The position numbers were made by a program, and so were the translations under genes. The notes under the pieces were generated by a model that made no database searches, was not told the origin of the DNA, and worked only from the letters and a program-made list of their open reading frames with translations. From a phage: a DNA stretch of 53,227 bases. Location of the stretch: NCBI GenBank assembly GCA_014161675.1, contig GCA_014161675.1_4760.2; one strand, given 5' to 3'. Position 1 is the stretch's first letter. The number at the start of each line of letters is the position of its first letter. Positions 11,154 through 50,532 of this stretch are shown here, in pieces.

Positions 11154-13937
11154 ATGGCAGATTTAAGCAGAATCCAATTTAAACGCACTAGCACTAAAGG
11201 TCGTAAACCTGATGCTAGTGCGATGAATCCTGGGGAATTGGCAATCAACCTTGCGGATCAATATCTTCTTACTAAAAATGATTCCGGTACTATTATCAAT
11301 TTAAGTTGTCCTCCGGTTTATGACCGCGATGTTACAATGGCGGGTAAGGTTAAAGGTAATAATTATATCTTAAGTAAAACCGCTAACTATCTGGAAGATC
11401 AGACAGCGAGAGATCTTAACTACTTTGGCGCTTTCCGTACCAATGGTCTTGATGGTCTTCTCGAACTCACGCTAAACGTTCCTCACTCTTCCGGTGTCCA
11501 ACATGGTCGAGGATTTACTTTCCAGTATGGACATACTGGATCACGAGTAGAAACCTATGGATATAATAGAGAAGGTCAAAAAGCATTTAGCTATAAAATG
11601 TATCACGAAGGTGATAAACCAACTCCAGGAGAATTGAACGTCTATAGCAAACAAGAAATTGACCGTATGTTTGTTAAGAACGTTAAAATGGTTGTTCCTT
11701 CTGGTGGTGCAACCCGTGGTTATTTTAAAATTGCATCCGCAATAATCCCGCAGAGTGGTCGGATGGCGTTTCTGCGAATCTATGGTGGTAATGGATATAA
11801 TGTAAACTCATATGATCAAGTTGATTTTCTTGAAATTGTTATTCGTAGTGGTAATAATAACCCTAAAGGCGTTAGTATTGCTGCATATCGTCGAAATTCT
11901 TTGAACGTCCACGAAGTATTTGCAATTAATACTTCCGGGGATAACTATGACATTTATGTTAACTATGGTCGTTACACCGATAACGTTATTGTAGAGTTTG
12001 GAAAAACTGTTGATGTTGCATTGACTGTTCACGATGTTCCTGAATTTTCGGCGACTAAACCAGCAACCGGAACTAAATTTGATGCTCGTGTTATTACGAT
12101 GTTCAACACCGAAAACAAAGCCGGAACGTTGATGTTTGATAATAACAATCAGTTAACCTATGATATTGTTAGCCTTAGCAATGGTCCTGATGATGTTAGA
12201 AATTATCTGCGTAAATTCCGAAGTAAAGCGGGTGAAATGATTTGGCATGAAACAGTTCAGGGTGCTGTATATCGTCTTGCTACTGGAACTACTGATTCTA
12301 CGGAAGTTCTTAGAGTTGATTCTAATAGTGCTATACCCGGTAGTTATAAAGGATATGTAATTACTGGTAAAATGGAATTGCATGGTAGTGGTAATTCGAT
12401 GATTTTACATCGCCAGACTGCTCAAGCCGCGTACATGTCGTGGTGGGATCGTCGTGATGGCAAAAACCAACGTAGCGGTTATATCGGTCATGCAGATGGG
12501 ACTAGTGATGCTATTGTGTGGAATAATGATATTGGACAAAACAGTGTTGTTCTAGAAACATCTGGTCAAATATCTTTCAGAACAGGTGAAACCAAAATTG
12601 TATATACCAACGGACAATATTATTCCGCTAACTCTGATGCATACCGTATGATCTTTGGTAATTACGGTGCATTCTGGCGTAATGACGGCACTAAAGTTTA
12701 TCTTCTGTCTACTGCTGAAAACGATAAATTTGGTGGTTGGAATGGTTATCGTCCATTCATTTATGATTTAACTTCCGGTAACGTTCAATTAGGCGGTGAT
12801 GGTAACGAAGAAGCATTAACGTTAGAACGTGCTTCTCGTGCCGCTCGCTTTAGTAATGACGTTTACATTAAGAAAGGGCATTTGACTTTCGACGCTGGGC
12901 GATTAAATTCCCGCGATTACTTCCGGTTTAACCATTGGGGCGATAGCAATAACGGTCGTGATAACATTCTATATCTAGAAGACAGTAAAGGTCGACATTT
13001 TAGCACCGAGCGTAATATGGCAACGGGTGCATTAAAAGCCGACTTCTTAGGCGATCTTGAAGTTGGTGGTAAGTTGATATGGGGTAAGAATACCGGACAA
13101 TCTAGCTTCAATATTCGTGCATGGGGTAATGATTCTCGTAAGCAAGTATTAGAATGCGCGGATGAAAGTGGTTGGCATTGGTATACCGAACGTACTGCGG
13201 GTGGCACTGGTCCGATTAAGTTCTCTGTTGCAGGTTCTTTCCATAGCGCAAGTGATGTTAACGTAGGCGGTAGTCTGAATTTTGGTAATGCTATTCAACG
13301 CGGCGCTAGCGTCATTACTATAGCTTCTAGTTCTGCTGGTGCTGGTTCTTTTGCATCTCAACATGATGATAACGTCAAAGCACCTATTTTCCAACGTTTA
13401 GACCGTGGTGATGCGTCTACATATGTTCCTTTGATTAAGCAACGTTATGTTCAAGGTGCAGTAACATTCTCGTTGGGTATGCTTCTTAACGAAGGTTCAT
13501 GGCGAGTTCATGTTAAAGGTTCTGGTGTTGAATCTAATACTACCTTCTATAAAAACGGCGATTTCCAAGCTGGACGCAATGGTAACTTTAACGACGTTTA
13601 CATTCGCTCTGATGCTCGCCTTAAAATCAATAAGGAAGAGTATAAAGAGAATGCCACTGATAAAGTTAATCGCTTGACTGTATACACCTACGATAAGGTT
13701 AAATCTTTAACTGACCGTACTGTCATTGCTCATGAAGTTGGTATTATTGCTCAGGATCTTGAGAAAGAATTGCCGGAAGCAGTAACAACTTCTAACATCG
13801 GCGATCCTGATAAGCCAGAAGAGATCTTAACAATTTCTAACTCTGCTGTCAACGCTCTTTTAATTAAGGCGTTTCAGGAAATGAGCGAAGAACTTAAAGC
13901 CGTTAAAGCTGAACTAGCGGAACTTAAAAAGAATTAA
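11154..13937 (+). CDS. 37: Long tail fibre distal subunit gp37 with C-terminal intramolecular chaperone (peptidase S74-type) domain
   Basis: 927 aa; recalled T4 gp37 similarity (IQFKR...KGRKP, AGAGSFASQ, DVKAPIFQRLDRGDASTYVPLIKQRYVQG). C-terminus carries YIRS-DARLK and HEVGIIAQDLEKELPEAV, the signature of autoproteolytic fibre chaperone domains. Predicted cleavage after Ser819 (codon 13608-13610). Confidence 0.9.
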   Translation: MADLSRIQFKRTSTKGRKPDASAMNPGELAINLADQYLLTKNDSGTIINLSCPPVYDRDVTMAGKVKGNNYILSKTANYLEDQTARDLNYFGAFRTNGLDGLLELTLNVPHSSGVQHGRGFTFQYGHTGSRVETYGYNREGQKAFSYKMYHEGDKPTPGELNVYSKQEIDRMFVKNVKMVVPSGGATRGYFKIASAIIPQSGRMAFLRIYGGNGYNVNSYDQVDFLEIVIRSGNNNPKGVSIAAYRRNSLNVHEVFAINTSGDNYDIYVNYGRYTDNVIVEFGKTVDVALTVHDVPEFSATKPATGTKFDARVITMFNTENKAGTLMFDNNNQLTYDIVSLSNGPDDVRNYLRKFRSKAGEMIWHETVQGAVYRLATGTTDSTEVLRVDSNSAIPGSYKGYVITGKMELHGSGNSMILHRQTAQAAYMSWWDRRDGKNQRSGYIGHADGTSDAIVWNNDIGQNSVVLETSGQISFRTGETKIVYTNGQYYSANSDAYRMIFGNYGAFWRNDGTKVYLLSTAENDKFGGWNGYRPFIYDLTSGNVQLGGDGNEEALTLERASRAARFSNDVYIKKGHLTFDAGRLNSRDYFRFNHWGDSNNGRDNILYLEDSKGRHFSTERNMATGALKADFLGDLEVGGKLIWGKNTGQSSFNIRAWGNDSRKQVLECADESGWHWYTERTAGGTGPIKFSVAGSFHSASDVNVGGSLNFGNAIQRGASVITIASSSAGAGSFASQHDDNVKAPIFQRLDRGDASTYVPLIKQRYVQGAVTFSLGMLLNEGSWRVHVKGSGVESNTTFYKNGDFQAGRNGNFNDVYIRSDARLKINKEEYKENATDKVNRLTVYTYDKVKSLTDRTVIAHEVGIIAQDLEKELPEAVTTSNIGDPDKPEEILTISNSAVNALLIKAFQEMSEELKAVKAELAELKKN

Positions 13938-14946: not shown

Positions 14947-15191
14947 TGGCGCATAGAAGCCCCTGAATCACATTTTGACGCTGTATGATGAAAACATGTA
15001 GCGTACCAGTCATCGGCTTGCTTGTCTTCGTCAGAAAACGCGTAATTTCGTTGTACGCCGTTTTCTACTTTGACCAGTGCAATAGCTGTTTCTGGAAGAT
15101 CAATCAATCGGACAAAATCACCATCTTCCCACTCTACACGAGCAATATCATAGCCCATCTCAAAGTATACAATCGCTTGTTCTAATTTCAT
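14943..15191 (-). CDS. Hypothetical protein (82 aa)
   Basis: ORF convergent with t. N-terminus MKLEQAIVYFEMGYDIARVEW loosely resembles a small phage DUF family; not verified. Confidence 0.45.
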   Translation of the reverse strand: MKLEQAIVYFEMGYDIARVEWEDGDFVRLIDLPETAIALVKVENGVQRNYAFSDEDKQADDWYATCFHHTASKCDSGASMRQ

Positions 15192-15511
15192 TCTGGAAAC
15201 TTCCCGTAAACATTCTCTGCCAGCTTACGTGCATCTTTTACAATATCTTTCATGTAATGACTATAATTTTTAGCTAGATCAATGATGCAATCAACAAAGA
15301 AGTAATAGCGTCGCAGTGCTACCAGCTCAACATCTTCAAGATGACCATTTTCTCCAATCGCTGAAATATGTTTAAATTCCTTTCGGATCGCGTCCATCGC
15401 TACATTAACTTCTTTTATAATATCTTTCGTATTATATGCACCTCGACTAATCAAAATTTTGGTTAGGTCTTCTGCTTTTTCGTGAAAGTTGTCAATTTCA
15501 AACTCGATCAT
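15188..15511 (-). CDS. Hypothetical protein, tandem paralog A
   Basis: Start placed at the ATG after GAGAGGTGA (the track start is a GTG 6 nt upstream). The C-terminus ...KDARKLAENVYGKF parallels the neighbouring gene. Confidence 0.5.
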   Translation of the reverse strand: MIEFEIDNFHEKAEDLTKILISRGAYNTKDIIKEVNVAMDAIRKEFKHISAIGENGHLEDVELVALRRYYFFVDCIIDLAKNYSHYMKDIVKDARKLAENVYGKFPE

Positions 15512-15624: not shown

Positions 15625-15957
15625 TCAAAATTTACCGAAAATATTCTCTGTCATAATTCTTGCTTCGTCGATTATTTTCGTCATGTTCATGGTGTAGTTA
15701 TGATCATTTAGCGCCTTAATGACAACGAGCAAGGAATCTAAAAACACTCGATACCGGGTATATTCTACACTATTTGTGAATACCGATGTTTTCTCTACTT
15801 TATCGATCAGATAGCCTAAAGCCGATAGCGCCTCGTTTACTTCCCTTGTTACTTTATCTGCGCTAAACAACACCGGATAAAGACGCGGTGTGATTAACCG
15901 CGCTGCCTCTTTCAATTCGGTCGCTTTCCATGATTCATATTTGTCATAGTTAAACAT
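15625..15957 (-). CDS. Hypothetical protein, tandem paralog B
   Basis: 110 aa; C-terminal ...IDEARIMTENIFGKF and the preceding Y..(F/Y)..D..(L/I) region align with paralog A. Confidence 0.5.
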   Translation of the reverse strand: MFNYDKYESWKATELKEAARLITPRLYPVLFSADKVTREVNEALSALGYLIDKVEKTSVFTNSVEYTRYRVFLDSLLVVIKALNDHNYTMNMTKIIDEARIMTENIFGKF

Positions 15958-16904: not shown

Positions 16905-17192
16905 TTATTTTCGGTTGTGGTCACGATATGTTTTAAAATATCCCTCGTACCACGGTAAAATATCTGGATTTTTACCACTATACAGACCTTTAACCATCAT
17001 GTCAATAAGGCCATCTGGTGTTTGATAGTTTCCAGCTTTTATAAGCTCTCTGATTAAAATCTCTCTGTATATGTCTTTCGGATCTTCGTAATCAACTTGT
17101 ATTGTGGTTGTTGTCTCGCTTAATTTGGTTTCTGGAGTATCTTGCATCGCCTTCCACCAATCTTTTGTAATCTTCATGTTATTGAATTGCAT
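16905..17192 (-). CDS. Hypothetical protein (95 aa)
   Basis: ORF in the early-gene island. Confidence 0.45.
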   Translation of the reverse strand: MQFNNMKITKDWWKAMQDTPETKLSETTTTIQVDYEDPKDIYREILIRELIKAGNYQTPDGLIDMMVKGLYSGKNPDILPWYEGYFKTYRDHNRK

Positions 17193-17203
17193 AATTTAAC
17201 CTC

Positions 17204-17962
17204 TTACTTGCAAACGTATTGATCTACATCAATTGCTCCACCGAATGTGGGATGACGTTTTTCAAATCGAATAGTTCCGTCGTTTGGTTCGAAAACGGAG
17301 TATTCATATAGATCTTTCTTGCCAACATTCTTATAAAACCCGCCTTTAGTCATAACGGTTTCTTGTACGTTTGCTTTGTGTACGTTGTATTCGTCAATGT
17401 ATACAAAATCAACCATCTTCCCATTTTTAATGGTTACTTTAAGATCTCCTGGTTGATTTCCATATTTGGCATACAGTGGCGCTTCTTTAATTTTTGTGGA
17501 AATTCCATCTTTCATACTCCACTCATAACGAACGGTGCATTGATAGGTAAAAGTTTCGACCTTCGGTTCTTCCACCACTTTTTCTTCCTGTTTCGGTTGT
17601 TCTTCGTCAACCTTCACGGAAGTCTCTGAATCGCTTTCTGACGCAGTTTCTTCTTTAGGTAATACATTCATCAAGTTTTGGATTTGAGCGTTGTATACAG
17701 CCTCCAGTGGCTGAATCTGCCCGATATTGATCATTGTATCACGAACAGTTTTATTCCAGTTGCGTTGCTCTTGTTTCAGAGACGGATCAATCTTAACAGC
17801 TTTAACATATACTTCATGAAGTTTAGAGTCCAGTGCGGAGATTGACTCATTAGCACAAATAAACTTCTCTGATTTGGTAGTAGCTTTAGCGCAATCAAAG
17901 GACGCAGCATTAGCACCGAAAGCAGTAGCGGAAAGAACGATAGCAGCGATAATGTTTTTCAT
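17204..17962 (-). CDS. Secreted LprI-like protein (DUF1311-like N-domain plus Cys-bracketed C-terminal domain)
   Basis: 252 aa. Signal peptide MKNIIAAIVLSATAFGANA. Then ASFDCAKATTKSEKFICANESISALDSKLHEVY...QEQRNWNKTVRD, matching the DUF1311/LprI N-domain pattern. Ser/Glu-rich linker, then a C-terminal domain bracketed by Cys (YQCTVRY...QYVCK). Confidence 0.7.
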   Translation of the reverse strand: MKNIIAAIVLSATAFGANAASFDCAKATTKSEKFICANESISALDSKLHEVYVKAVKIDPSLKQEQRNWNKTVRDTMINIGQIQPLEAVYNAQIQNLMNVLPKEETASESDSETSVKVDEEQPKQEEKVVEEPKVETFTYQCTVRYEWSMKDGISTKIKEAPLYAKYGNQPGDLKVTIKNGKMVDFVYIDEYNVHKANVQETVMTKGGFYKNVGKKDLYEYSVFEPNDGTIRFEKRHPTFGGAIDVDQYVCK

Positions 17963-17996
17963 AATATATTCCTCAATGTTTTGTCTTGATGGGAGT

Positions 17997-18025
17997 ATCT
18001 TACTACTCCCTTAATCCGGTGTCAA
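17997..18025 (-). promoter_or_regulatory. Sigma70-type early promoter
   Basis: Minus strand TTGACA (18020-18025), 17-bp spacer, TAAGAT (17997-18002). The -10 lies inside the inverted repeat GGGAGTA/TACTCCC. Followed by GAGGAA and the ATG at 17962. Confidence 0.6.
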
Positions 18026-18245: not shown

Positions 18246-18275
18246 GTGATTCTCCTTTCGTTTGTTATGGGAGTA

Positions 18276-18304
18276 TGTTACTACTCCCTTATCTTTACGT
18301 CAAC
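18276..18304 (-). promoter_or_regulatory. Sigma70-type early promoter
   Basis: Minus strand TTGACG (18299-18304), 17-bp spacer, TAACAT (18276-18281), embedded in the same GGGAGTA/TACTCCC inverted repeat. Confidence 0.6.
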
Positions 18305-18310
18305 TAGTTT

Positions 18311-18553
18311 TTAGAAATTTTTCGCTTCTTCTTCGGTCATCATCACCGCGCATTCGTGCATAACTTTGAAAACCGGGTCAATCATATCGAATGCTTCGCG
18401 AGACAATTTACGAGAAGCGATTTTGATTGCTTCAACGTCTTCTACTACAGGAACAAAAACAGTTTTCAGTTCGTCGAGCACGGCAGCTTCTTTTTCATTC
18501 AGGAAGATTCCAGCGTCGTACAATGCAACTTCGATAACATTAACTTTAACCAT
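18311..18553 (-). CDS. Hypothetical protein (81 aa)
   Basis: Start placed at the ATG (MVKVNVIEV...) preceded by GGAGGAAAT. The track's longer ORF starts at a TTG inside the promoter and is rejected. Confidence 0.5.
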   Translation of the reverse strand: MVKVNVIEVALYDAGIFLNEKEAAVLDELKTVFVPVVEDVEAIKIASRKLSREAFDMIDPVFKVMHECAVMMTEEEAKNF

Positions 18554-18587
18554 TTTTATTTCCTCCAGTTCGTTTCGGTATGGGAGT

Positions 18588-18616
18588 ATAATACTACCGA
18601 TGACCTTTGGCGTCAA
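18588..18616 (-). promoter_or_regulatory. Sigma70-type early promoter
   Basis: Minus strand TTGACG (18611-18616), 17-bp spacer, TATTAT (18588-18593), then ACTCCCATACC. Confidence 0.6.
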
Positions 18617-18817
18617 CTAGTTTTTGTTATTTCCGTGAAAATTTTTCGTCGCCTCATGTGCTTTTCGCTTGGCTTCTTGTTGTGTTTGCTGGCGTGCTGC
18701 CTCTTGTGAAGCCATAACGGAAGCATTTGCAGCAGTTACAGCCGCTACCATCGCTGCGGTATTAGCATTTACAGTACATGCGCTCGCCAACAAAGCAATC
18801 GCAATCATTTTCTTCAT
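18617..18817 (-). CDS. Small secreted or lipoprotein-like peptide (66 aa)
   Basis: N-terminal signal sequence MKKMIAIALLASAC with a possible lipobox Cys; Ala/Gln-rich mature part; AAGGGGAAA upstream. Confidence 0.5.
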   Translation of the reverse strand: MKKMIAIALLASACTVNANTAAMVAAVTAANASVMASQEAARQQTQQEAKRKAHEATKNFHGNNKN

Positions 18818-18984
18818 AGTTTCCCCTTTAGGTTATCTTCGACCTTCACCCATTCCGCGTATTCTTGCGCGGCTACTTTCGGATTTAGGCCGTCTTCGTA
18901 CATTGCATCAAGTAATTCTTTGTCGGTGGGCTTATACCCTAGATAAGCCTCCACCTGATTTTTCCAAATTTTATACCAGTTCAT
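18814..18984 (-). CDS. Hypothetical protein (57 aa)
   Basis: Start trimmed to the ATG at 18984 (MNWYKIW...) to remove overlap with the upstream gene. Confidence 0.35.
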   Translation of the reverse strand: MNWYKIWKNQVEAYLGYKPTDKELLDAMYEDGLNPKVAAQEYAEWVKVEDNLKGKL

Positions 18985-26740: not shown

Positions 26741-26768
26741 ATTATAGAGAATCTCCCTTGTATGTCAA
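26741..26768 (-). promoter_or_regulatory. Sigma70-type early promoter
   Basis: Minus strand TTGACA (26763-26768), 16-bp spacer, TATAAT (26741-26746), flanked by the GGGAGA/TCTCCC inverted repeat. The -35 overlaps the stop of the HNH gene. Confidence 0.6.
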
Positions 26769-27328
26769 CTAAAATTTAAAGATGCAAACTCCCCGTGATG
26801 AATTTTTGCATATTCATCATATGCTCTAGCGGCTTCCTCCTGAGTAGCAAACGATCCTATGTATTTTCTGTATCCGTTTATCCTTATTTGTGCTTGCCAC
26901 GGTCTTTTGCTAGATCCTTTGCGATGAGTAACACCATTATATATGCTCGTGCACCCGTCCATTTTCTTTTTATTGTACATGTTTTGTTGTTGTGTTGCCT
27001 CCCGTAAATTTGGTGGATTGTTGTTTTCTGGATTCCCGTCTATGTGGTCTATTACCTTAACCTGTGTTCCATATTCAAGAAACCAGACAATTCTATGTAC
27101 AAGATATGTAGATGTTCTCTTTTTAACCTTATTGTAAACATCTATTGCCAAATGACCGTAATTTAACTTTTTTGTTTTTACTTTATCACCGACTCGGTAG
27201 AAATATCCCTCTGGTAGACCATTAAAAGACGGACTATTTGTTTTGTGATATAGAACACCTTCCGTGTGTTCAAATCTGCGTTTTAATTCCTCTTGAATTT
27301 CAGTATTCCAAAATTTCGCACTTTTCAT
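26765..27328 (-). CDS. HNH homing-type endonuclease with C-terminal AP2 DNA-binding domain
   Basis: 187 aa; HNH motif region HRIVWFLEYG...VIDHIDGNPENNNPPNLREAT, then an AP2-like segment YNGVTHRKGSSKRPWQAQIRINGYRKYIGSFATQEEAARAYDEYA. Stop/start are adjacent to gene 39. Confidence 0.85.
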   Translation of the reverse strand: MKSAKFWNTEIQEELKRRFEHTEGVLYHKTNSPSFNGLPEGYFYRVGDKVKTKKLNYGHLAIDVYNKVKKRTSTYLVHRIVWFLEYGTQVKVIDHIDGNPENNNPPNLREATQQQNMYNKKKMDGCTSIYNGVTHRKGSSKRPWQAQIRINGYRKYIGSFATQEEAARAYDEYAKIHHGEFASLNFS

Positions 27329-49462: not shown

Positions 49463-50488
49463 CTAACTTTTTGCGCTATTTACCTCGGCTAAAAGTTCAT
49501 CAGAAATACGCTTGACCGCCGCAAGTTCTTCCGGTTCTAGGTTTTGTTCTTCCAGATATTCATAGACCATCTGAATAGTGCTTTTAACTTCAATAACACC
49601 TGTTTCCTGTGATGCGCTACTCTCCAGCTTATGGACCACTTTTAGCTTGTGTACAACGGCCTCTAACGCGCTTTCTAACTTAGTTAACCCATTATCAGCG
49701 ACCGTTGCGATAAGACGCACACTAAGCCCCTTAAAGCGTTCTACATCGATTTTATCATCTGACGGGTAAGTGATACGCACATGATAAGTTTTCTCATTCT
49801 GGATAAACTCCTTTTTGTGTGTATCGGTATCGAATACCCAAAAACCACGCGGATCGTTTTCGTCACCAGCCGTTAGTGTGTATGGTGTACCAATATACGT
49901 TACGTTACCGCCATCACTGATAGTATGAAAGTGACCAGAAAACACTTCACGGTATTTCTTGAGGAAGTCCGCGCTATAACCTTCTGATTTTAGCCCTTTA
50001 TAGAAATAGTAACCGGACAATTCCCAATGGCCTACACAATATTCGCTGAATGAGTTTTGAATAAACTCTAAAATCTCTGATTTATTGTCATCACAAAACC
50101 ACGGGAACAGATCAAATGATACACCATCAAAGGTAACTGTTTCCGGTTTATCGATAACCTTAATGCAATCATACTGGCTTAACACTTCACGCGGTGCGTT
50201 AGGCTGGATCTTATTGCGCTTAAACATATCATGATTCCCGACCGTGATATAACAAGTAATACCAGCCTCTTCCAGTAACGGAATGACCTTAGTGCGGTTA
50301 AATTTCATGGTTTCATGGGTAATTGCTTTTCGGCAATCAAACCAATCTCCTGTTTGAATCCATGTCTTAATATTATGCTCTTTGGAGTATTCAACCGCTT
50401 TCTTGATGGTATCAAGAATATACTCGTGCACCCACGGATCATCGCCACCGATACCAGTATGCAGATCACCTAAAAGCAAAATTTTCAT
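49463..50488 (-). CDS. 47: Recombination nuclease gp47 (Mre11/SbcD-like)
   Basis: 341 aa; calcineurin-like phosphoesterase motifs (LLLGDLHTG, QTGDWFD, GNHD, GHFH). Confidence 0.92.
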   Translation of the reverse strand: MKILLLGDLHTGIGGDDPWVHEYILDTIKKAVEYSKEHNIKTWIQTGDWFDCRKAITHETMKFNRTKVIPLLEEAGITCYITVGNHDMFKRNKIQPNAPREVLSQYDCIKVIDKPETVTFDGVSFDLFPWFCDDNKSEILEFIQNSFSEYCVGHWELSGYYFYKGLKSEGYSADFLKKYREVFSGHFHTISDGGNVTYIGTPYTLTAGDENDPRGFWVFDTDTHKKEFIQNEKTYHVRITYPSDDKIDVERFKGLSVRLIATVADNGLTKLESALEAVVHKLKVVHKLESSASQETGVIEVKSTIQMVYEYLEEQNLEPEELAAVKRISDELLAEVNSAKS

Positions 50489-50532
50489 AGTCTCTTCCTC
50501 TCTTCGTTTTCGATGCTCTCACTATATCACAG

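Follow-up and report, generated by a model that had tools for sequence, protein, structure and literature searches.

The window examined here, the whole stretch of 53,227 nt, comes from a T4-type coliphage that resembles RB49 and is a member of the genus Krischvirus; it is collinear with RB49. It carries a minus-strand gene encoding a predicted exported protein of 252 amino acids, in which an almost invariant N-terminal half containing an LprI (formerly DUF1311) domain is joined by an acidic linker to a C-terminal domain that behaves as an exchangeable cassette; the same gene, with several of the cassettes, is found in a prophage of Escherichia coli. By analogy with proteins of known activity, we tentatively suggest, at somewhat less than even confidence, that the exported LprI domain and its cysteine-stapled barrel form a modular neutralizer of incoming envelope-attacking proteins in the periplasm. 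All coordinates given below are window positions unless a locus is named.

The gene corresponds to RB49p262 (NP_891833) in the RB49 RefSeq record and belongs to family phrog_14799. The 2.2 kb around it are 97 to 98% identical to phages FL37, kaaroe, and RB49, and about 46 Krischvirus genomes contain an intact copy of the open reading frame (ORF) with at least 96% identity. Overlapping plus-strand ORFs (e.g., 17363-17629) were set aside because the minus-strand frame has homologues and a ratio of nonsynonymous to synonymous divergence (dN/dS) below 1. Beforehand, the gene was annotated by domain name only, and its parts are of known kinds: the RB49 orthologue in the BFVD/UniProt table takes its name from the LprI-like N-terminal domain, and a survey from 2006 recorded a weak DUF1311 match (E value of 0.2) for "RB49ORF260c" (PMC1524935), which is probably the present gene under older numbering.

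Cassette exchange was evident from the alignment of 17 relatives, in which residues 1 to ~130 are almost identical (about 97% for the N-half) and identity in the C-domain goes down to 16 to 40%. Compared to phage JSE, the DNA of the window is 96.5% identical up to position 17555, has no detectable identity across the cassette, and resumes at 94% identity at 17205, in the stop codon; homology to Phi1 breaks at 17561 and that to the prophages at 17582-17592. The 5' recombination breakpoints fall in the linker and the 3' breakpoints at the stop codon. When C-domains were pooled from phage genomes, E. coli genomes, IMG/VR, and metagenomes, 35 distinct sequences were obtained, and these formed 8 classes at 70% identity, five of which are mutually alignable at about 25 to 56% while three are JSE-type.

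The two halves of the gene have different histories and are under different constraint. In the N-half (codons 1 to 120), synonymous divergence (dS) of 0.07 to 0.27 is accompanied by nonsynonymous divergence (dN) of 0.004 to 0.05, i.e., a dN/dS of about 0.1, indicating strong purifying selection, with most of the amino acid changes located in the signal peptide or the linker; dS between phage and prophage copies equals that between phages. Within a class, the C-half has a dN/dS of about 0.3, indicating that it is functional, although under weaker constraint than the N-half. Between loci L004 and L016, the dS of the N-half is 0.146 and that of the C-half 0.013, whereas between locus L002 and JSE the corresponding values are 0.18 and 2.4.

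A constant N-terminus, a variable C-terminus, and sharp recombination boundaries are the hallmark layout of secreted polymorphic toxins or effectors, in which the N-half would deliver a C-half that is toxic or host directed. We regard this as highly improbable for the present protein. No immunity gene covaries with the cassette, the downstream ORF being of two types and reduced to a stub in prophages with intact barrels; no toxin domain was detected in the protein; DUF1311 is known on the immunity side rather than the toxin side; and 115-residue barrels without a catalytic motif are unlikely toxins.

The N-terminus, MKNIIAAIVLSATAFGANA followed by AS, reads as a Sec-type signal peptide with a signal peptidase I (A-x-A) site: its n-region has a single Lys, the hydrophobic stretch is ~14 residues long, and positions -3 to -1 are A-N-A. 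This assignment, read from the sequence, agrees with the cleavable signal peptide proposed in an initial sequence-only reading of this DNA. A lipobox is absent because the first Cys is residue 24 (cleavage region G-A-N-A/A-S). Pfam PF07007 (LprI) matched aa 24 to 76 with an E value of 3e-5 and 24.8 bits against a gathering cutoff of 22, spanning profile positions 1 to 71 of 106, and ten further relatives pass this cutoff independently with 22.7 to 29.0 bits. The DUF1311/LprI motif named in the same reading was thus essentially right, with the corrections that four residues, not three, lead from W69 to R74-D75 and that position 41 is Ile.

The full-protein AlphaFold model, built from the 17-sequence alignment, has four helices at aa 30 to 98 with a predicted local distance difference test (pLDDT) score of 70 to 79; aa 1 to 21 score below 50, and aa 104 to 131 form a disordered stretch. 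The latter lies in the linker, which was expected to be rich in Ser and Glu and indeed is, together with Lys and Pro, and whose length varies between alleles. All 17 aligned relatives share four cysteines, C24, C36, C142, and C251. A sequence search for a solved relative of the whole protein gave none, and Foldseek comparison of the full model with the Protein Data Bank (PDB) gave nothing at an E value of ≤0.001.

In the same model the C-domain is all beta, with a pLDDT of about 88 to 92. A model of the C-domain only, based on a 12-allele alignment (pLDDT of 86; predicted template modeling [pTM] score of 0.78), is a meander barrel of about eight strands with C142 and C251 placed on the first and last strands, suggesting a disulfide bond between these two strands. 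The RB49 protein has an independent model in BFVD, with which the present one agrees at a TM score of 0.92. An outer membrane barrel was rejected, as most strands are 6 to 8 residues long, the C-terminus (...YVCK) is without the terminal aromatic signal, and the domain comes after a soluble domain and an acidic linker.

An eight-stranded barrel with a disulfide bond from the first to the last strand is shared by MliC, PliC, and ACP (PMC5507604). PliC, ACP, and PhiA were among the closest small soluble matches of the phage barrel, at the fold level only; fold comparison gave 7.5, 2.5 Å, and 82 of 90 for Brucella PhiA; 6.8, 2.6 Å, and 83 of 103 for Neisseria ACP; and 6.8, 2.5 Å, and 76 of 97 with 18% identity for Brucella PliC. 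Unlike these proteins, to which its identity is 6 to 18% without a hidden Markov model match, the phage barrel is fused behind an LprI domain. Neither the whole protein nor any of the 12 C-domain alleles matched Pfam MliC (PF09864) at E values of up to 10, and searching PDB sequences with the barrel profile retrieved no PliC, MliC, or ACP, the only match being a spurious PhoU-like protein. The second C-domain type has no solved relative by sequence search. Searches with the barrel against 1.84 billion representative proteins, and with its profile against 5.8 billion, yielded nothing but proteins of this family and fragments of them; two further matches, P0021 and P0022, were discarded as repeat artifacts. 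The earlier suggestion of a Cys-bracketed, MliC-like domain accordingly stands for the two invariant cysteines and the modeled barrel, and its likeness to MliC is one of fold, with no signal in the sequence.

Outside Krischvirus, 26 of the 5426 complete E. coli genomes carry DNA of the N-half at 94 to 96% identity, always on the chromosome and in a single copy annotated as "lysozyme inhibitor LprI family protein"; among GTDB species representatives there was no close relative. The gene is the last one of a prophage of ~35 kb with a gpA-type terminase and a Rha regulator, inserted in hicB, and nine of the 11 IMG/VR contigs are likewise prophage-like, about 24 to 36 kb long, with the gene at the contig end. 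Three barrel classes occupy this single prophage site, each of them closest to a class also present on Krischvirus-sized contigs. In four of six prophage copies examined, the stop codon is directly followed by the start of the phrog_15915 ORF, which is the downstream ORF of the window; the ribosome-binding site and ~24 codons are kept, after which the ORF is truncated, with an internal stop in one copy; the other two copies, which carry a JSE-related barrel class, gave no stub match after the stop. The presence of this stub in a prophage indicates that the gene was captured from a T4-type genome. Because the conserved N-half and the stub are homology arms around the cassette, infection of a lysogen by a Krischvirus could lead to the exchange of alleles, and we infer that such exchange takes place.

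The order of signal peptide, LprI domain, low-complexity linker, and a domain of ~100 residues with a Cys pair recurs in proteins of 230 to 254 aa from several other phages. Apart from gp108 of the Klebsiella Marfavirus F48, these include proteins of 239 aa in CC2 and 246 aa in LAh10 among Aeromonas T4-like and jumbo phages, gp35 of the lambdoid phage ev099, whose gene adjoins xis/int, and a protein of the plasmid-prophage SSU5. An "ASFDC.KA" LprI domain is common to this wider set, and all members pass the Pfam cutoff; in Aeromonas phage 65 the LprI domain stands alone. The C-domains of the wider set are unlike the Krischvirus barrels and matched nothing known.

What the cassette fails to track is informative about its partner. 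Across about 60 Krischvirus genomes, the gp5 tail lysozyme shows at least 98.8% identity irrespective of the barrel allele, and the holin is 98 to 100% identical across barrel alleles. The window phage and RB49 have the same barrel allele and gp37 tips that are 52% identical, while RB49, Phi1, and JSE have gp37 tips that are 84 to 87% identical and barrel alleles that are 16 to 36% identical. The gp38 adhesin occurs in two types, which combine with the barrel alleles in all four possible ways; the downstream ORF also occurs in two types, against three or more barrel alleles, without covariation. Since the allele covaries with none of gp5, the holin, gp37, gp38, and the downstream ORF, the phage itself probably does not supply the partner of the barrel, and the simplest reading is an external and diverse partner. 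A role as an rI-type antiholin was rejected, as an rI gene of its own is already present in RB49 and the holin shows no covariation. As a separate observation on gp37 (11154-13937), its tip region at 13192-13569 is not alignable to RB49 by megablast and its last 300 aa have 52% identity to RB49, Phi1, and JSE, so the receptor specificity of the window phage probably differs.

An external partner might be an outer membrane phage receptor or channel that the barrel masks from the periplasmic side, in the manner of T5 Llp or Cor, with one cassette per receptor blocking adsorption or DNA entry. A variable binder on a constant scaffold would suit the diversity of outer membrane receptors, carriage by both virulent and temperate phages is frequent for superinfection exclusion genes, and tail fibers are encoded about 3 kb away. 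The barrel allele, however, does not covary with the gp37 tip or the gp38 type, the protein is without a lipid anchor, and the known receptor-masking proteins are unrelated to it, and we therefore consider this mode of action quite improbable.

The sequence-only reading had also noted that no homologue of the T4 protein Spackle (gp61.3) is recognizable here, and this proved correct. Searching the window and the whole RB49 genome with T4 Spackle by tblastn revealed none, the best match (E value of 0.016 to 0.049) being a chance one inside gene 41. The RB49 interval between genes 61 and 41, the syntenic site of Spackle, is occupied by other ORFs, and neither sp nor imm is annotated. From this absence it had been proposed that the present gene replaces sp and that its product inhibits the gp5 tail lysozyme of like superinfecting phages. 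Both proteins would be early, signal peptide-bearing, disulfide-containing periplasmic proteins of T4-type phages, as far as can be predicted for the present one; Spackle is a helical bundle of 75 aa with one disulfide bond (PMC7677548), similar in size and type to the N-domain, whose invariance parallels that of gp5, and Tequatrovirus genomes, which have Spackle, gave no match to the LprI fusion.

Nevertheless, we found no positive support for such a replacement and judge it unlikely. The two proteins share no sequence similarity, Spackle is encoded between 61 and 41 whereas the present gene lies between t and 52, and a mature protein of 75 aa compares with a two-domain protein of 252 aa whose variable part does not follow gp5. 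As the barrel is swapped while gp5 stays constant, at most the N-domain could bind gp5. The same N-domain is under purifying selection in an unrelated prophage without gp5 and occurs also in the lambdoid and SSU5-type phages, and Marfavirus F48 has both an annotated, syntenic Spackle and the LprI fusion. The properties of the LprI-domain protein ScwA and the missing MliC motifs, both considered below, point the same way.

ScwA also serves as the model for another possibility, in which the LprI domain would act on an E. coli lytic transglycosylase, endopeptidase, or amidase, stabilizing or remodeling the sacculus during infection or lysogeny, with the barrel directing it to particular host variants. 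ScwA is a periplasmic, disulfide-stabilized LprI-domain protein that controls other hydrolases as well as the level of MltD (PMC7933661). The extreme conservation of the N-domain would fit a conserved host target, and lysogens retain the gene. Yet such a role leaves the unrelated second-domain cassettes within one host species unexplained, the kinship to ScwA consists of a shared Pfam domain only, and no lysis or cell wall gene is linked except the holin gene, 2.3 kb away, which does not covary; modulation of host enzymes thus appears improbable.

With an LprI domain, a linker, a barrel of MliC/PliC-like topology, an early promoter, and no Spackle, the most reasonable function for the protein is that of a cell wall hydrolase inhibitor in the periplasm. 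As we envisage it, the gene would be expressed early and its product exported by the Sec pathway to the periplasm of the infected cell or, for the prophage copy, of the lysogen, where a flexible acidic tether would link its two folded parts, the constant disulfide-containing LprI domain and the exchangeable disulfide-stapled barrel. There it would bind and neutralize envelope-attacking proteins that enter the periplasm from outside, candidate targets being the cell wall hydrolases that rival phages carry on their tails, muramidases or amidases secreted by bacteria, and lysozymes. The constant N-domain may provide a common function, e.g., dimerization, anchoring, or inhibition of one conserved enzyme class, while the barrel cassette would decide which foreign protein is recognized. 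New specificities could arise by homologous recombination between an infecting Krischvirus and a resident prophage, with the N-half and the start of the downstream gene as arms. A precedent on the LprI side comes from DUF1311 proteins that have been linked to immunity against type VI effectors acting in the periplasm (PMC12135965, PMC12981562).

Several points weigh against this proposal. The fold likeness of the barrel is generic, since many unrelated barrels score equal to or better than PliC, ACP, and PhiA. The MliC/PliC motifs SxSGAxY (loop 4) and YxxxTKG (strand 6) are absent from the C-domain, and no allele matches Pfam MliC; ACP, for its part, inhibits lysozyme without these motifs (PMC5507604). 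The JSE-type cassettes align with the RB49 type over the first strand only (hhalign probability of 51%) and may be non-barrels. ScwA of Salmonella, the single enterobacterial LprI-domain protein to have been studied, plays no part in resistance to lysozyme (PMC7933661), and lysozyme inhibition may reside in either of the two domains of Mycobacterium tuberculosis LprI.

That protein (Rv1541c), a reported lysozyme inhibitor, consists of a signal peptide, PF07007, and MliC (PF09864) (PMC7933661), and the phage protein therefore reproduces its architecture with a different barrel: the order of parts is the same, with an export signal, an LprI/DUF1311 helical domain, and a barrel of MliC-like topology. 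It differs in that LprI is a lipoprotein, whereas the phage protein has a predicted signal peptidase I site and no lipobox, its barrel is without the sequence signal or motifs of MliC, and it has an acidic linker of 30 residues, a swappable cassette, and a viral gene. With immunity proteins of the Tai4/Rap type it would share DUF1311, a periplasmic location, and protection against imported cell wall enzymes. Those proteins, however, are single-domain, the kinship is again that of a shared Pfam family only, and the phage gene has no adjacent effector gene; the neighbors of the prophage copies are hicAB and phage genes, with no effector gene among them.

A broader proposal, which we consider somewhat doubtful, is that these proteins constitute a phage-borne form of modular periplasmic immunity, in which an LprI scaffold carries at least 8 interchangeable classes of binder, each directed against a different incoming weapon, e.g., a rival phage's tail hydrolase, a type VI effector, or a bacteriocin. 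Virulent T4-type phages and resident E. coli prophages would trade these cassettes by homologous recombination, and the design would extend to the Klebsiella, Aeromonas, lambdoid, and SSU5-type phages.

Table 1. Coordinates of the gene, its parts, its flanking elements, and related loci (window positions unless a locus is named)
Feature	Position	Strand	Basis or remark
Coding sequence, 252 aa	17204..17962	-	Signal peptide, LprI domain, linker, C-terminal barrel (predicted); stop codon 17204-17206
Signal peptide (predicted), aa 1-19, MKNIIAAIVLSATAFGANA	17906..17962	-	Read from sequence; predicted cleavage after A-N-A
LprI/DUF1311 helical domain, aa 20-100, Cys pair C24/C36	17663..17905	-	Pfam, model, alignment
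Acidic E/S/K/P-rich disordered linker, aa 101-134	17561..17662	-	pLDDT <50; indels
Exchangeable C-terminal domain, aa 135-252, predicted eight-stranded barrel, RB49-type allele	17207..17560	-	Models, fold searches
Downstream ORF, 95 aa, phrog_15915	16905..17192	-	Its start is the 3' homology arm of the cassette
Shine-Dalgarno sequence GAGGA	17970..17974	-	Read from sequence; 7 nt before ATG
Stem-loop of promoter/stem-loop element, GGGAGTA-N6-TACTCCC	17991..18010	-	dG -10.4 kcal/mol; overlaps -10 hexamer
Sigma-70-type early promoter (predicted), TTGACA-17-TAAGAT	17997..18025	-	A-rich tract upstream
phrog_15915 stub, prophage copy	L004 8776-8865
phrog_15915 stub, prophage copy	L013 9770-9847
phrog_15915 stub, prophage copy	L024 3267-3344
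phrog_15915 stub, prophage copy	L016 3276-3365
Klebsiella Marfavirus F48 gp108, 250 aa	L025 3501-4253
LprI-fusion locus	L026 1474-2193
LprI-fusion locus	L027 2501-3199
LprI-fusion locus	L028 2001-2699
LprI-fusion locus	L029 1501-2241

The gene is located in the hyperplastic region between the holin gene t and the topoisomerase gene 52. The neighboring ORFs are all small and none matched a family of known function; NCBIfam and PADLOC searches likewise returned nothing meaningful. The promoter upstream of the gene (Table 1), which matches the consensus at 10 of 12 positions and sits in a gap of 70 nt, agrees with the strong early promoter assigned from the letters alone, an early expression class being predicted. 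With its sigma-70 promoter, AT-rich tract, and G/C-stemmed hairpin in a gap of the hyperplastic region, this site meets the definition of the promoter/stem-loop (PeSL) elements, which in RB49 and phi1 were shown to serve as early promoters and terminators (PMC2839356). A second, near-identical hairpin, GGGAGTA-N6-TACTCCC, is present at 18269-18288, and both hairpins overlap the -10 hexamer of a TTGAC(A/G)-17-TAA(G/C)AT promoter; if the hairpin folds as DNA or RNA, promoter use could be coupled to the termination of upstream transcription.

The locus resembles the PeSL-flanked ORFan cassettes described by Arbiol et al. in 2010 (PMC2839356) in its location in the t-52 hyperplastic region, the promoter/stem-loop upstream, and the insertion or replacement of neighboring ORFs between close relatives. 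It differs from them in that the exchange reported here is intragenic, from the linker to the stop codon, has coding sequences instead of PeSLs as its arms, and reaches a temperate prophage. In the literature searched, no intragenic cassette polymorphism, exchange between virulent T4-type phages and E. coli prophages, or recurrence of a scaffold with a variable domain in different groups of phages is described.

Some further differences between the window and its relatives were observed. A segment of ~500 bp at 18325-18826 has no counterpart in RB49, Phi1, or JSE and carries ORFs at 18311-18553 (80 aa) and 18617-18817 (66 aa), neither with a PHROG or Pfam match, the latter having a signal peptide-like N-terminus, MKKMIAIALLASACTVNA; RB49p263 (51 aa) is missing from the window, and the two changes together look like a PeSL-type cassette replacement adjoining the gene. 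The neighboring minus-strand ORFs at 15188-15511 and 15625-15957 (107 and 110 aa) both belong to phrog_9457 and are therefore a local tandem duplication. Mobile endonucleases occupy different sites in these close relatives: an HNH_3 and AP2 homing endonuclease-like ORF of 187 aa at 26765-27328 (minus strand) lies between gene 39 and the ORFs on the rIIA side, a site at which RB49 carries no such ORF, and the HNH/AP2 endonuclease RB49p040, which adjoins gene 47 in RB49, is absent from the window (junction near 50485-50489).

To our knowledge, few envelope defenses of the infected cell are known in T4-type phages besides Imm and Spackle of the T-even phages, and the present gene is a candidate for envelope-level exclusion or protection in T4-type phages that lack Spackle. 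The natural swaps of a single domain on a fixed scaffold offer a ready specificity panel for finding the targets, and the locus is a record of recent gene flow linking a T4-type phage that is strictly virulent to a temperate prophage of E. coli, the neighboring gene of the donor having left a footprint that is still there. Therapy collections make use of Krischvirus phages; should the choice of rival phage or toxin to be blocked indeed depend on the cassettes, this would bear on the design of phage cocktails and on how lysogens come to be protected.

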